Below, one piece after another: positions 5,955 through 24,743 of a stretch of DNA of 34,079 bases; the first letter of the stretch is position 1, and the number at the start of each line of letters is the position of its first letter. The notes under the pieces were generated by a model, which saw nothing but the letters and a program-made list of their open reading frames with translations, searched no databases and was not told the DNA's origin. Position numbers and translations under genes: made by a program. Source of the stretch: an uncultured Bacilli bacterium (GTDB taxonomy: Bacteria > Bacillota_I > Bacilli_A > RFN20 > CAG-826). Location of the stretch: assembly GCA_944358755.1 (NCBI GenBank), contig CALVRY010000001.1, positions 1 through 34,079 of the forward strand, read 5' to 3'.

Positions 5955-7316
5955 ATGCAATTTAAATCTTTTAATCTAAAACCAGAAATTATTAATGTTT
6001 TAAGTGACTTAGGTTACGTTAATTTAACAAAAATTCAAGAATTAGTGATTCCAAAAGCCTTAAAAGGAGAGAATATTATCGCTAAAAGTGAGACAGGGAG
6101 TGGAAAGACTCACGCTTTTATTGTTCCAATTATCAATAACATAGTTAGTGATAATAATTTACAAGCAATAATTATTAGTCCAACTAAAGAATTAGCTCAA
6201 CAAACATACTCATTTATCGTACAAATTGTAGAAAAATTAGAAAATATTACAGTAAAATTATTTTCAAGTGGTGAAGACACCACGAAAGACAGTAAATCTT
6301 TTTATAATGGTGCAAATATTATTGTTGCGACACCTGGCCGTTTATCATATTTATTAAATAACGTACAAATTGATTTATCAAATTTAAAAACAATCGTTCT
6401 TGATGAAGCGGATATGCTCATTGATAGAACTTTTATTGATGAAATTGATAAAATTTTTAGTATTGTCGACAAAAACAAGATTCAAATCGAAGTTTTTAGT
6501 GCAACAATATCGAATAATGTTAATGATTTTTTAAGAAAATATATTTCGCCTGACTATTTATTAACTGTTGATGACGAAAATAAAGCTTCAAAAAACGTTA
6601 AACATTTTTTCATCAACACCAAACACCAAGACAAATTCCAATTATTGTTAGATTTCATTAATTTAAAAAATCCTTATTTATTATTTGTTTTCGGTAATTC
6701 AAAAACTGAAGCCAAAAAAATATATGAATTTTTATCCGAAAATAAGTTTAAATGCGGATTTATTAGCGGTGAATTAGAAAAAAGAGAAAGAAGATCAATG
6801 CTTAGAAGAATCAAAAACGACCAATATCGTATTGTTGTCGGAACTGATTTGGCTGCAAGAGGCATTGATGTGGAAGATGTTAGTGATGTTTTAAACTTCA
6901 ACATTCCAAACAATTTAGAATATTATTATCACCGTGCAGGAAGAACAGGACGAATTGGCAAAAGTGGAAATTGCTATTCTTTTTATGATAACGATAATTT
7001 AAATTTGCCTTCAAAACTAATTAATGAAGGGCTGGAAGTGGAATACTTAAAATTTAACAATGGAGAATTAGTTAAAGATATTCCTTTAAATAAAGATATT
7101 AAAAAGAAAAAATCCAATGTTAATACAGATTTAGAAAGAGAAATCAAAAAAGCTAAATTTAAAGCAATGGGCAAAAAAGTTAAGCCTGGATACAAGAAAA
7201 AAGTTAAACAAGCAATTGATAAAGTCAAAAGAAAACATAGAAGAGAAGTCATTAAAAAAGACATTCGTAGACAAAGAGTCGAAAGATATAAAAACGAAGC
7301 CAAAAACAATATTTAG
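5955..7316 (+). CDS. cshB: DEAD-box ATP-dependent RNA helicase with a Lys/Arg-rich C-terminal tail
   Basis: 453 aa with Q-motif, GSGKTHAF, DEAD, SAT and HRAGRTGR. Its synteny matches B. subtilis yqfR (cshB), between ispH and ispG. Confidence 0.85.
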   Translation: MQFKSFNLKPEIINVLSDLGYVNLTKIQELVIPKALKGENIIAKSETGSGKTHAFIVPIINNIVSDNNLQAIIISPTKELAQQTYSFIVQIVEKLENITVKLFSSGEDTTKDSKSFYNGANIIVATPGRLSYLLNNVQIDLSNLKTIVLDEADMLIDRTFIDEIDKIFSIVDKNKIQIEVFSATISNNVNDFLRKYISPDYLLTVDDENKASKNVKHFFINTKHQDKFQLLLDFINLKNPYLLFVFGNSKTEAKKIYEFLSENKFKCGFISGELEKRERRSMLRRIKNDQYRIVVGTDLAARGIDVEDVSDVLNFNIPNNLEYYYHRAGRTGRIGKSGNCYSFYDNDNLNLPSKLINEGLEVEYLKFNNGELVKDIPLNKDIKKKKSNVNTDLEREIKKAKFKAMGKKVKPGYKKKVKQAIDKVKRKHRREVIKKDIRRQRVERYKNEAKNNI

Positions 7317-7373
7317 TGCTTAATTAGTATTTTATCAGTATATTATTAGTACATAATTAGTAGTAAATTAGTA
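7314..7373 (+). repeat. phased TAGTA array A (6 units, 11-bp register)
   Basis: The sequence reads TAGTGCTTAAT|TAGTATTTTAT|CAGTATATTAT|TAGTACATAAT|TAGTAGTAAAT|TAGTACATATC. It spans from the cshB stop to the ispG stop. Confidence 0.85.
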
Positions 7374-8420
7374 CATATCAATTAATTTATAAAGCTCGTT
7401 GAGAACATTTTCTTCATCTGTTGTTTTTAGTATTTTACCATGACTAAAGATTTGAAAAAGGCCATTACCGCCAGCAATTCCAATGTCAGCATTTTTTCCT
7501 TCACCTATGCCATTAACGATGCAGCCCATAACAGCAACAGTTAAATTTTTTTTATGTTGAATCATATATTCCAAAATTTTATCAGCTATTTGAGCAGTAT
7601 TTTTAACCATACATCGACCACATGTAGGACAGGTTATAATTGTTGGATAATTTTCATATAATCCAAGATCATGTAATAACCTTACACACGTTTTAATCTC
7701 TTTTTGAGGATTGTGCGTGAGAGAAATTCTAATAGTAGAACCAATTCCTTCAAGTAATAGAGGAGAAAGTGCACTCACAGATCTAATAATACCAATTTCG
7801 TCATAACCACTTTCAGTAACACCAATATGAAGAGGATAATTAGTTTTTTTACTCATTAAACGATAAGCTTTAATAGTTAGAAGTGGATTTGAAGCTTTTA
7901 CGCTTATAACGAGTTTAGAAAAACCATATTCTTCAAATTTTTTGATATATTTTAAAGCACTTTCAGTTAATTTTTCTTCTTCAGATAAATTAGATGAAGC
8001 TAAATCCTTTTCTAAAGAACCTTTATTAACCCCAATTCTAATTGCGACATCATACTTTTTAGCAACATCAATTATTCTTTTTAATTTCTCATCGCTTCCA
8101 ATATTTCCTGGATTTATTCGTATTTTATCAGCTCCATTTTCAATGGCTAAAATGCCTAAATTAGCATCAAAGTGTATATCAGCAACAATCGGAACGCTAA
8201 CTCTTTTTTTAATTTCTTTAATTGCATAAGCATCATCTTTATCTAAAATACTTACTCTCATCATTTGTGCGCCTAAAGCAGTGCATTCGTTGATTTCTTT
8301 GACAACTTCATGAATTTTAGAAGTTTTAATGTCGCACATTGATTGAATTATAACTTGATTATTTCCGCCAATTTGAATATTTCCTATTTTTACAGGAATT
8401 GTATTTTCTCTCGTACTCAT
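7368..8420 (-). CDS. ispG: 4-hydroxy-3-methylbut-2-en-1-yl diphosphate synthase (IspG/GcpE)
   Basis: 350 aa with VADIHFD, RINPGNIG and RIGVNKGSLEKDL. The Fe-S ligands are intact (CPTCGRC ... MGCIVNGIGEG). Confidence 0.9.
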   Translation of the reverse strand: MSTRENTIPVKIGNIQIGGNNQVIIQSMCDIKTSKIHEVVKEINECTALGAQMMRVSILDKDDAYAIKEIKKRVSVPIVADIHFDANLGILAIENGADKIRINPGNIGSDEKLKRIIDVAKKYDVAIRIGVNKGSLEKDLASSNLSEEEKLTESALKYIKKFEEYGFSKLVISVKASNPLLTIKAYRLMSKKTNYPLHIGVTESGYDEIGIIRSVSALSPLLLEGIGSTIRISLTHNPQKEIKTCVRLLHDLGLYENYPTIITCPTCGRCMVKNTAQIADKILEYMIQHKKNLTVAVMGCIVNGIGEGKNADIGIAGGNGLFQIFSHGKILKTTDEENVLNELYKLIDMY

Positions 8421-8476
8421 ATAAATATTATATGCTGATTTTTAGATTAAAATATATAGAAACACACGGTTAAATG

Positions 8477-23509: not shown

Positions 23510-24711
23510 TTTTTTGGATGATCCTTTAAATCACTTAGTCTAAAAAAGATTGGTTTTTTGGCTTTTCTATTAAGTTCATTTATTAATAAAACAGTTTTAT
23601 TTTCATTTTCATGTCTTTCGTAGTTATCAAAAGTCATTTGAACAACTACATCGTGTTTGTCTTTTAAATTTTTAAGGGTAAATCCAATTAAACGAATTTC
23701 TTCGCCTTTATAAGTTTTTTCAAAAAGTTTGATTCCTTCAGAATATAATTCATCTTTAGAATCCGTGTAATTATTAAGAGTTTTTGAAACTGTACTTGTT
23801 TGAAAACCATCATCACAATCGGCACTTTTATACGTAATTTGTATTGTTTTACATAACTTTCCAGACTTAGAAAAGTCACTTAATAGGTTTTCCATTAATT
23901 GCGAAAGAAATTTTCTTATATAAAATCTATCATTTGTATCAAAATCAAGTGTTCTTGTCATACCCATTGATTTCGGATCATATGGCCCAGTATCGACAAC
24001 GTCGCTACTATTTCCTTCAAGTTCATTAATTAAATCTTGTTTCATCGAACCAAAGAAGTTTTCTAGCGCTTCATCGTTGTTTTTTAGCCCATAATACAAT
24101 TCACCAATCGTTTTATAGCCAGCTCTTTCTAATTTTGGAAACGTTTTTTTACCAATTCCAAATAAATCTTTAACTGGCAAAGTGAAAATAATATCAGGAA
24201 TATCTTTCTTTCTAATAATTGTAATTCCATTAGGTTTTTTATAATCAGAGCCCATTTTTGCTAAAAATTTTGTTGGTGCAACTCCGATTGAGCAATTCAA
24301 TTTAGTTTTAGCATAAAGTTTTTCTTGTAAGCCTTTCAAAAATGGTACCGGATTTGTAATTCTATTCGCCTTAATTACATTAGTAAAATCACAAAAACAT
24401 TCATCAATCGACATTTGCTCTATTGAATGTGTATAATTTCTAACAAAATTAATGAATTCTTTAGACATTAATTCATAAAATTTATAATCTCCAGGAAGAA
24501 TTATTAGATTTTTGCATAACATCTTTGCTTGAAATGTAGGCATTCCAGAGTGAATTCCATATTTTCTAGCTTCATAAGAGCAAGTTGAAACAATTCCTTT
24601 TCTTCCGTCACCTCCAACAGCAACAGGTTTACCAATTAAAGAAGGATTTTTAATTTCTTCGCACCTAACAAAAAACTGATTTAGGTCTATATGAAGTATA
24701 ATTCTTGCCAT
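23506..24711 (-). CDS. dinB: DNA polymerase IV (Y-family)
   Basis: 401 aa with HIDLNQFF, SIDECF catalytic acidic residues and the little-finger region. Its TGA stop overlaps the xer ATG. Confidence 0.9.
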   Translation of the reverse strand: MARIILHIDLNQFFVRCEEIKNPSLIGKPVAVGGDGRKGIVSTCSYEARKYGIHSGMPTFQAKMLCKNLIILPGDYKFYELMSKEFINFVRNYTHSIEQMSIDECFCDFTNVIKANRITNPVPFLKGLQEKLYAKTKLNCSIGVAPTKFLAKMGSDYKKPNGITIIRKKDIPDIIFTLPVKDLFGIGKKTFPKLERAGYKTIGELYYGLKNNDEALENFFGSMKQDLINELEGNSSDVVDTGPYDPKSMGMTRTLDFDTNDRFYIRKFLSQLMENLLSDFSKSGKLCKTIQITYKSADCDDGFQTSTVSKTLNNYTDSKDELYSEGIKLFEKTYKGEEIRLIGFTLKNLKDKHDVVVQMTFDNYERHENENKTVLLINELNRKAKKPIFFRLSDLKDHPKK

Positions 24712-24716
24712 TTATT

Positions 24717-24743
24717 TACTAGAAAACTACTAATAATCTACTA
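24717..24743 (-). repeat. phased TAGTA array E (3 units)
   Basis: The minus strand reads TAGTAGATTAT|TAGTAGTTTTC|TAGTAAATAAA followed by TG of the dinB start. On the plus strand, TACTA occurs at 24717, 24728 and 24739. The array fills the 33-nt xseB-dinB spacer. Confidence 0.8.

Follow-up and report, generated by a model that had tools for sequence, protein, structure and literature searches.

The window analysed here, a stretch of 34,079 nucleotides from an uncultured Bacilli bacterium, carries seven short arrays of the heptamer (T)TAGTA(G), the subject of this study, on either side of a dif site. With a GC content of 29%, the window is AT-rich; its source is a Bacillus-class organism with the standard genetic code. 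Contigs identical or near-identical to the window were found in animal-gut metagenome assemblies, and the GroEL of related loci carries the names Candidatus Onthovivens or Firmicutes MAG (metagenome-assembled genome). Its genes form two blocks that converge at ~18.7 kb. The left block comprises dnaG, rpoD, trmK, NIF3, ispH (minus strand), a cshA-like helicase gene, ispG (minus strand), rpmG, a metallo-beta-lactamase (MBL) hydrolase gene and efp, and continues up to dif with yneF, plsY (minus strand), parE, parC, yqeG, yqeH, yhbY and yqeK. The right block lies on the minus strand and holds a MazF-like gene, an ABC transporter gene, deoB, an xer recombinase gene, dinB, xseB and xseA, followed by nusB, tkt, aspS, hisS and relA. 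At the junction, the XerCD-type 28-mer ACTTCGTATAATATCTATTATGTAAATT (18723-18750, plus strand) shows 24/28 identity to the dif of B. subtilis (reference sequence from PMC3025954). It sits at the maximum of the cumulative GC skew, exactly where the skew changes sign, is kept in related loci (L102/L136, L105, L140, L145, L152; L numbers denote loci from genome and metagenome collections, in which open reading frames, ORFs, were mapped) and has a gene for an Xer-type recombinase 4 kb away (22625-23509). On the strength of its similarity to the phylum consensus, the skew shift point, its conservation and the nearby Xer gene, this 28-mer is a genuine dif, which bears out the position that an earlier reading of the sequence alone (hereafter the original prediction) had assigned to dif and the terminus. 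About 90% of the genes, together with the G-rich strand, switch at this point.

The first gene to the right of dif encodes a MazF/PemK-like protein (18891-19442, minus strand). Genes of 183-190 aa with a C-terminal PemK/MazF-like toxin domain are likewise the first to the right of dif in L102 (4815-5387), L136 (3173-3745) and L145 (6854-7411); the L102 orthologue matches the Pfam PemK/MazF family whereas the window copy does not, and no antitoxin gene is obvious beside the gene.

The arrays consist of (T)TAGTA(G) followed by four further nucleotides (N4) in a strict 11-nt period. A scan with TAGTA-N6-TAGTA-N6-TAGTA, allowing at most two mismatches, gave 18 overlapping matches against 0.11 expected from shuffles, and these merge into the seven arrays; a looser array detector finds 0.005 arrays per Markov-shuffled window. 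The full heptamer TTAGTAG occurs 13 times in the window against 3.95 expected, and 10 of these 13 are within arrays (nine in arrays A-E and one in array F). The scan recovered all five arrays of the original prediction, A to E, at the positions and on the strands reported for them, and it added two, F and G, that its list had lacked. Array A (7314-7373, plus strand; five to six units with an 11-nt period) includes in its first unit the TAG stop codon of the DEAD-box helicase gene (5955-7316) and overlaps the last two codons of the convergent ispG (7368-8420, minus strand). Array B (10203-10230, minus strand; three units, TTAGTAGATAA, TTAGTAGTTTT and CTAGTA) begins 4 nt past the stop codon of plsY and lies upstream of a bidirectional hairpin resembling an intrinsic terminator (10140-10167), which stands between yneF and the plsY/array B pair. 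Array C (16059-16086, plus strand; three units) is located between parC, with its small divergent membrane-protein ORF, and yqeG, and ends 18 nt ahead of the yqeG ATG; a sigma-70-like promoter match, TTGATA-17-TAAAAT (15981-16009, plus strand), identified by consensus only, would if real place array C in the 5' untranslated region of yqeG. Array D (18844-18881, minus strand; four units) lies 93 bp from dif and begins 9 nt past the stop codon of the MazF/PemK-like gene. Between it and dif the sequence can be read directly as an AT-rich hairpin, AAGACGATTATTATCAT...ATCATAATAAATCGTCTT (18762-18807), which a scan for the terminator consensus did not report; given the run of T that follows it on the minus strand, it probably terminates the transcript containing array D. 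Array E (24717-24744, minus strand; three units) occupies the xseB-dinB spacer, from 1 nt after the xseB stop codon to 5 nt short of the dinB ATG; the spacer lacks a Shine-Dalgarno sequence.

The two added arrays are both intragenic. Array F (29750-29787, minus strand; four units) lies within aspS in the sense direction, and its in-frame unit has AAG in place of TAG, so that the aspS ORF stays open. Array G (32710-32747, plus strand; three to four units) is antisense within relA and, though to the right of dif, points away from it. The tkt and aspS genes overlap in the window, with F and G flanking their junction, and relatives carry an array in the aspS|tkt spacer. A further 'half-copy' that the original prediction had placed at 18700 is a single TAGTAG (18700-18705, plus strand), made up of the yqeK stop codon and one additional TAG; as a single unit it amounts neither to an array nor to a significant match, and a lone TAGTA near dif recurs in L136 only. 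Longer contigs of the same species add 7.7 kb to the left of the window and, with them, two more sense arrays (L260 2050-2076 and 5968-6005), at GFO|deoC and era|recO. The tally for the species is nine arrays in 41.8 kb, between -24 kb and +14 kb from dif, or ~1 per 4.6 kb, of which seven point to dif and eight are sense to the local gene.

The repeat unit and its conservation among related Bacilli

The anatomy of the element emerges from 51 non-identical arrays of the clade. Its unit has the profile T (0.74) T (0.94) A G T A (0.95) G (0.65), with T or C at position 1 in 86% of units, and is completed by four A/T-rich positions that are otherwise unconserved. Pairs of TAGTA on the same strand are spaced by 11 nt in 119 cases and by 22 nt in 65, while any other spacing from 4 to 30 occurs at most eight times; inverted pairs (TAGTA...TACTA) show no enrichment at any fixed offset. 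An array comprises three to six heptamers, one helical turn apart, over 27-60 bp, and 49 of the 51 are intergenic. The commonest form has exactly three units, TTAGTAG-N4-TTAGTAG-N4-nTAGTA, the last usually being the weaker. Since the spacers differ between units while the heptamer is conserved, these are not recent slippage repeats.

Pattern scans of the genome and metagenome collections, with mapping of the ORFs around the matches, show that individual arrays recur at the same positions in other species. An array follows the plsY stop codon at the same place and in the same orientation as array B in L138, L194 and L219; the parC-to-yqeG position of array C is occupied in L009, L105, L120, L145, L150 and L152; and an xseB|dinB or xseB|dxs array like E is present in the window and in at least nine other species. 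Beyond the block around dif, arrays near groEL precede an esterase gene and nrdG in L148, L263, L264 and L342, and others are located at ftsL|ftsA in L039, L177 and L210 and at further sites associated with mnmA|alaS, RNase J, lepA and an ABC-F gene. The sequences flanking these sites in the relatives have diverged (29-52% GC), and the arrays change in unit number and in their spacers but retain the heptamers. These arrays are, accordingly, a genuine, positionally conserved and apparently undescribed signal of a clade of gut and rumen Bacilli; a search of the literature with motif sequence strings returned only primers and unrelated matches.

The same observations bear on whether the arrays might be a selfish or neutral repeat family without host function, akin to REP (repetitive extragenic palindrome) or MITE (miniature inverted-repeat transposable element) sequences or generated by slippage. 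Phage and metagenome DNA is indeed rich in perfect 11-mer tandem repeats: TTAGTAG was found at 32 viral loci, and three control heptamers of matched composition at 21, 41 and 16. However, the spacers of the arrays are non-identical, their heptamers are conserved at orthologous positions across species with diverged flanks, and it is unit number and spacers that turn over, all of which makes this explanation very improbable. The arrays do share with REP and BIME (bacterial interspersed mosaic element) sequences the form of short repeats at gene 3' ends, usually transcribed and placed between stop codon and terminator. REPs, however, are imperfect hairpin-forming palindromes, as opposed to unstructured direct repeats that occupy orthologous sites rather than being dispersed copies.

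The control heptamers also led us to discard the idea of a universal signal shared across phyla, as they mark perfect 11-mer tandem repeats as a generic background; the corresponding genome scan was dominated by a TTAGTAGGTGA family of the Bacteroidales, and matches were also obtained in phage contigs. In the viral contigs (L225-L341), arbitrary heptamers each had perfect 11-bp tandem repeats at 16-41 loci, in many cases shortly before a Shine-Dalgarno sequence and an ATG. The TTAGTAGGTGA family is separate and abundant in rumen and gut MAGs of Bacteroidales, Paludibacteraceae and Prevotella (L007-L125), where three to eight tandem units are found (for instance L024 2064-2123 and L099 6023-6093). 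All but one of its members are intergenic, their orientation is mixed (32 same/same, 25 opposite/opposite, 24 divergent and 8 convergent), and at six loci they lie 38-128 nt upstream of a conserved hypothetical gene, mostly of ~146 aa (127-168 aa), that belongs to no Pfam family. Perfect TTAGTAGTTAA tandem arrays were seen in contigs of 60-71% GC (L149, L153, L160, L178, L224), which are possibly eukaryotic or giant-virus DNA.

Polarity and density of the arrays around dif

The original prediction had noted that most arrays point towards dif and had offered, as one of two readings, a polar signal of replication or segregation centred on dif: a Ter-like fork trap, FtsK/SpoIIIE-orienting sequences or matS-like sites. 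The polarity itself still stands at seven of nine arrays in the species once F, G and the two left-hand arrays are counted. The reading also gains from an array that lies between dif and the first gene to its right, in the same orientation, in six species (array D of the window, L102/L136, L105, L140, L145 and L152). This array is 90-150 bp from the XerD-arm side of dif and reads towards it, despite the fact that the right-hand gene beside it differs between species. Likewise, eight of nine exact long-contig matches in the complete metagenome scan fell in the dif-proximal syntenic block. As the prediction had itself cautioned, however, gene orientation and replication direction are confounded here, and the polarity towards dif cannot be separated from gene strand. 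Because gene strand and base skew give the same picture, the switch at dif is no proof of a fork trap; for replication biology more generally, a G-rich motif that switches polarity at dif is not in itself evidence of a fork trap or of a KOPS-like system (FtsK orienting polar sequences).

Density allows a further comparison. The terminus-block loci of relatives contain 19 arrays in ~101 kb; as these loci were fetched for having an array, one seed per locus was subtracted, after which ~1 array per 14 kb remains. Four 21.6-kb groEL-anchored regions of relatives, unbiased as to arrays, contain five, or ~1 per 17 kb. The apparent terminus enrichment of the raw long-contig matches hence vanishes after seed removal and comparison with groEL, and the high local density that had been taken as a possible sign of terminus specificity is not borne out; in the species itself the density is unchanged out to -24 kb from dif, as judged from the same-species contigs. 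The conserved arrays near groEL/nrdG, ftsA and alaS point the same way.

Neither does the polarity obey a replichore rule. Arrays pointing the wrong way on the same replichore include those at plsY and aspS|tkt, both conserved, one upstream of recN in L140, and array G, and in L092 and L108 one minus-strand and one plus-strand array lie within 4 kb of co-oriented genes. Array B, which counted as an outlier under the terminus reading, is no exception of the window, as the three other species with an array after plsY show. Indeed, plsY is the only lagging-strand gene that allows the comparison, and in four species its array follows the gene and not the replichore. Array polarity is thus a property of the locus rather than of the replichore, and conserved wrong-way sites are not expected of a fork trap or KOPS-type system.

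The arrays recall Ter/Tus, Ter/RTP, KOPS/SRS (SRS, SpoIIIE recognition sequences) and matS sites in so far as the latter are polar (Ter, KOPS) or terminus-associated and most arrays of the window point to dif. In contrast to Ter, they are not confined to the terminus, their wrong-way copies are conserved, and arrays B and G break the polarity rule; in contrast to the single 8-30-bp sites of Ter, KOPS and matS, they are array-shaped and essentially intergenic. KOPS/SRS, as short motifs of ~8 bp that are frequent all along the chromosome, coding DNA included, do not fit arrays of 27-60 bp that are intergenic in 49 of 51 cases, and matS, a palindromic site of the Ter domain only, does not fit direct repeats that also occur outside the dif block. 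No protein resembling Tus or RTP is encoded in the ~42 kb available of this genome. Taken together, these results do not support the dif-centred signal, to which we would now give only a very slim chance.

Gene boundaries and the strand of the transcript

The second reading of the original prediction held that the element always lies sense to the transcript containing it. This is the better rule, with ~41 of 51 arrays (~17 of 23 independent sites) in the sense orientation, but it is not absolute: roughly a quarter of the sites carry antisense copies, the situation in which the prediction had expected a transcript-level role to fail, and some of these copies are conserved. Four species of 33-52% GC share an antisense array at aspS|tkt, a further conserved antisense array lies between nrdD and the next gene, and at ftsL|ftsA the orientation is sense in L039 but the opposite in L177 and L210. 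The transcript-sense reading is therefore supported in part. The bias may partly follow from base skew, as three units contain six G and no C and a ratio of ~4:1 would be expected at a skew of 0.12.

A close relationship to gene boundaries is nevertheless apparent. The arrays begin between -25 and +43 nt from a same-strand stop codon in 27 of 51 cases, and at convergent junctions the array abuts the stop codon of its co-oriented gene in 9/9, even where 140-1900 bp of free spacer are available. In some cases the array supplies the stop codon itself (array A, era|recO, GFO|deoC and L219). The usual layout at 3' ends runs from stop codon to array to terminator hairpin, as in arrays B and D and in L009, L105, L194 and L102. 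At 5' ends, a Shine-Dalgarno sequence is missing behind 12 of the 13 sense arrays adjacent to a start codon (among them those before dinB, dxs, recO and yqeG), whereas all five antisense arrays in this position, such as aspS|tkt and nrdD|next gene, are followed by a clear one.

These rules could be accounted for by an RNA-level element of cistron boundaries, in which UUAGUAG-N4 repeats of the sense transcript, unstructured, free of C and placed directly behind stop codons and ahead of start codons, would offer a platform to an RNA-binding protein or a target to an endoribonuclease. Such an element would set mRNA 3' ends or processing sites, or permit initiation or reinitiation independent of a Shine-Dalgarno sequence, for example via near-leaderless mRNAs. 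It is favored by the sense orientation of ~75-80% of the arrays, their start no more than a few nt from same-strand stop codons, which they sometimes provide, the stop-array-hairpin layout, the contrast in Shine-Dalgarno sequences between sense and antisense arrays, the placement of the array after the lagging-strand plsY in four species, and the lack of structure in the array RNA. Several genes of the window, moreover, lack a Shine-Dalgarno sequence but have a -10 box close to the start codon: -10-like hexamers (TATAAT, TAAAAT, TATAAA) end exactly 6 nt before the ATG of cshA (5955), ispG (8420), plsY (10986) and ispH (5898). This suggests that leaderless mRNAs are frequent in this organism, and if leaderless translation is common, processing to leaderless messages becomes conceivable. 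On the other hand, no -10 element occurs at a consistent distance inside the arrays, which consequently are not leaderless promoters. An RNA element is also hard to square with the conserved antisense arrays (aspS|tkt in four species, nrdD|next gene), with G lying antisense in relA, with the orientation flip at ftsL|ftsA and an inverted copy upstream of nrdG, and with the L148 array that lies downstream of the groEL terminator. Further, TRAP sites have spacers of 2-3 nt and HutP sites of 4 nt, so that a strict 11-nt period would be unusual for known RNA-binding oligomers. The arrays do resemble TRAP/HutP sites in their repeated UAG triplets and in being unstructured RNA near start codons, but those sites have short spacers and act in sense only, and we excluded a site of this type given the strict period and the conserved antisense copies. 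On balance we regard an RNA element as possible, though less probable than not.

A related and slightly less probable proposal is a clade-specific 'gene punctuation', in which a stop-array-start or stop-array-terminator module on the transcript would be read by a dedicated RNA-binding protein or endoribonuclease and would replace the Shine-Dalgarno sequence, as before dxs, dinB and recO, for instance if polycistronic RNA were processed to near-leaderless mRNAs; alternatively, a DNA roadblock protein would mark operon ends in place of Rho. With respect to the endoribonuclease version, we mention that the MazF/PemK-like gene adjoins dif in three species.

The proximity to stop codons also raises a protein-independent possibility, namely that the arrays are stop-codon cassettes ending any translation that runs past a gene end. 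With a period of 11 nt, three units suffice to bring TAG (sense) or TAA (antisense) into every reading frame. In keeping with this, the minimum and commonest array has exactly three units, the number needed for three frames; arrays begin at, and sometimes supply, stop codons; and the T or C at position 1 yields TAA or TAG on the reverse strand. However, off-frame stops should already be frequent at 29% GC, so that selection would be weak, and neither the conserved TTAGTAG nor the exact 11-nt spacing is explained, since a great variety of sequences could serve the purpose. Likewise unexplained are the arrays ahead of promoters (esterase, nrdG) and within genes (F and G). We thus consider the cassette improbable. 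With regard to stop codons in general, the 34 of the window comprise 18 TAA, 10 TAG and 6 TGA, the TAG share being high for a genome of 29% GC; five of the six TGA stops are in overlapping ATGA or TGATG junctions.

Several more conventional elements of transcription were set aside. Were the arrays sigma-70 promoters, with unit 1 as the -35 and unit 3 as the -10 element at 17-bp spacing, the start would fall downstream of the dxs or dinB ATG; they also lack a -10 element at the 6-nt distance seen at the apparent leaderless genes. A Rho utilisation site on the antisense RNA (periodic YC, no G) does not fit the array positions, and in the Bacteroidales convergent junctions are the rarest class. 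Nor are the arrays intrinsic terminators or a structured RNA family: the fold z-scores of the sense RNA, from -1.2 to +0.4, reveal no significant structure of their own, and the window has no Rfam match at the gathering threshold and no tRNA gene.

Proposed cooperative DNA binding and comparison with known systems

The explanation that we favor, though not with great confidence, is that the arrays are cooperative head-to-tail binding sites on double-stranded DNA for a putative sequence-specific protein of the clade. The unit, a conserved heptamer (T/C)TAGTA(G) with a 4-bp A/T spacer, gives an 11-bp repeat that would put successive heptamers on one face of the helix, where three or more protomers could bind head to tail, most plausibly of a winged-helix type (OmpR/PhoB/SARP or DeoR/FapR-like). 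The sites are those of cistron or operon boundaries, namely after stop codons, in stop-to-start spacers and beside promoters, and the bound complex might there block or modulate read-through transcription into the next unit, or initiation at adjacent promoters. Array orientation would be fixed for each locus and inherited with the neighboring gene; with ~90% of the genes and the G-rich strand switching at dif, the pattern of polarity around dif would then be a by-product. The motif, its phasing and distribution, its conserved positions and its mixed orientation are observations, from which binding to DNA, the fold of the putative binder and any influence on transcription are inferred.

What leads us to prefer a DNA array is the combination of one-turn phasing, a 7+4 unit repeated at least three times, conservation in either orientation, inverted pairs and intragenic copies. 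In particular, the conserved antisense array at aspS|tkt, the flip at ftsL|ftsA, the inverted copy at nrdG and array G in relA suggest a function independent of the transcript strand. We also count in its favor that, where the aspS|tkt spacer has been lost in the window, arrays are found inside the neighboring genes instead (F and G), F being edited so as to keep the ORF open, and further that the array RNA is unstructured and without an Rfam match and that the L148 array lies beyond the GC-rich terminator hairpin of groEL. Upstream of nrdG, L264 (16982-17090) and L263 (15467-15590) have an inverted copy of two units ~50 bp beyond a sense array; the L264 pair shares a perfect 21-nt inverted repeat, spacers included, and a TTGTAAAAAAATTTTTACAA palindrome comes next. 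At L263, a group II intron reverse transcriptase gene (RVT_1 and GIIM domains; 12112-13455) stands between groEL and the conserved array upstream of the esterase gene.

Several findings weigh against DNA binding as the explanation. No candidate gene for a binding protein is linked to the arrays. Their placement appears tied to the transcript, with 27 of 51 arrays near a same-strand stop codon and all nine at convergent junctions hugging the co-oriented one despite free spacer, and ~75-80% of all arrays are sense. The Shine-Dalgarno sequence is missing after 12 of 13 start-abutting sense arrays and present after all five antisense ones. Many sites are in operons or at convergent gene ends, where there is nothing for a promoter-proximal regulator to act on. 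Finally, the position of array B on the lagging-strand gene plsY contradicts the attribution of the sense bias to GC skew. Binding to DNA leaves the hugging of stop codons and the replacement of the Shine-Dalgarno sequence unexplained, and the RNA element is thus a serious rival.

A close architectural parallel comes from the SARP-type sites, in which a heptamer and a 4-bp spacer form 11-bp units, typically as three head-to-tail repeats on one face of the helix (PMC10972967). In this respect the arrays match the sites of SARP and OmpR/PhoB regulators (ActII-ORF4, DnrI and PimR, and the Pho boxes). SARP sites, however, overlap or adjoin the -35 element of activated promoters in Actinobacteria, while many arrays lie after stop codons, in operons, at convergent ends or inside genes; the motif also differs and no cognate protein is known. 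Some arrays are indeed upstream of genes (esterase, nrdG, tkt) but many are at convergent 3' ends or inside operons, and the promoters in question are consensus guesses. The FapR operator TTAGTACCAGATACTAA contains TTAGTA half-sites with centres 11 bp apart (PMC5028935), that is, an identical half-site at the same spacing, and array B adjoins the phospholipid gene plsY. FapR half-sites, in contrast, are inverted to form a 17-bp palindrome at fab/pls promoters, whereas the arrays are direct repeats, at least three per site, flanked by genes mostly unrelated to lipid synthesis. The MraZ boxes, too, are three direct repeats able to abut a start codon, and they occur in the same clade: L210 (~1850-1885) has a textbook MraZ operator, whose three AAGTGG copies recur every 10 bp and lead directly into the mraZ start codon. 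These boxes differ in motif and period and are found upstream of mraZ only, so that the TTAGTAG arrays represent a separate system and are not MraZ operators; they do indicate that a DNA site can directly adjoin an ATG.

Should a dedicated factor bind the arrays, these would constitute a regulon-like or punctuation-like layer of genome organization in widespread uncultured Bacilli of gut and rumen. These Bacilli are Onthovivens-like, were at one time assigned to the 'Mollicutes' in binning and have no known cis-regulatory code. Owing to its simplicity, the motif lends itself to the annotation of operon boundaries in their MAGs. It could also serve as bait for its putative binder and as a means to ask how internal cistrons that lack a Shine-Dalgarno sequence are translated.

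Lastly, DnaA boxes deserve a separate comment. We rejected a DnaA-box cluster or DnaA-trio as the identity of the arrays, as the reverse complement of the best unit, TTATCTACT, agrees with the consensus TTATCCACA at only 7/9 positions and the 11-nt period misfits 3-nt trios. Canonical boxes are not enriched in the window as a whole (12 against 10.4 expected for TTATCCACA with at most one mismatch). A DnaA-box-like 9-mer, TTTTCCACA (10192-10200, plus strand; 8/9 to consensus), lies 2 bp from array B. Canonical or one-mismatch boxes are found less than 60 bp from the terminus-junction and plsY arrays, at this position in the window and at L140 1750-1778, L105 ~4550, L102 4744 and the equivalent position in L136. 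Perfect boxes near arrays number three against 0.15 expected, and in L140 an inverted pair of perfect DnaA boxes stands between dif and the array.

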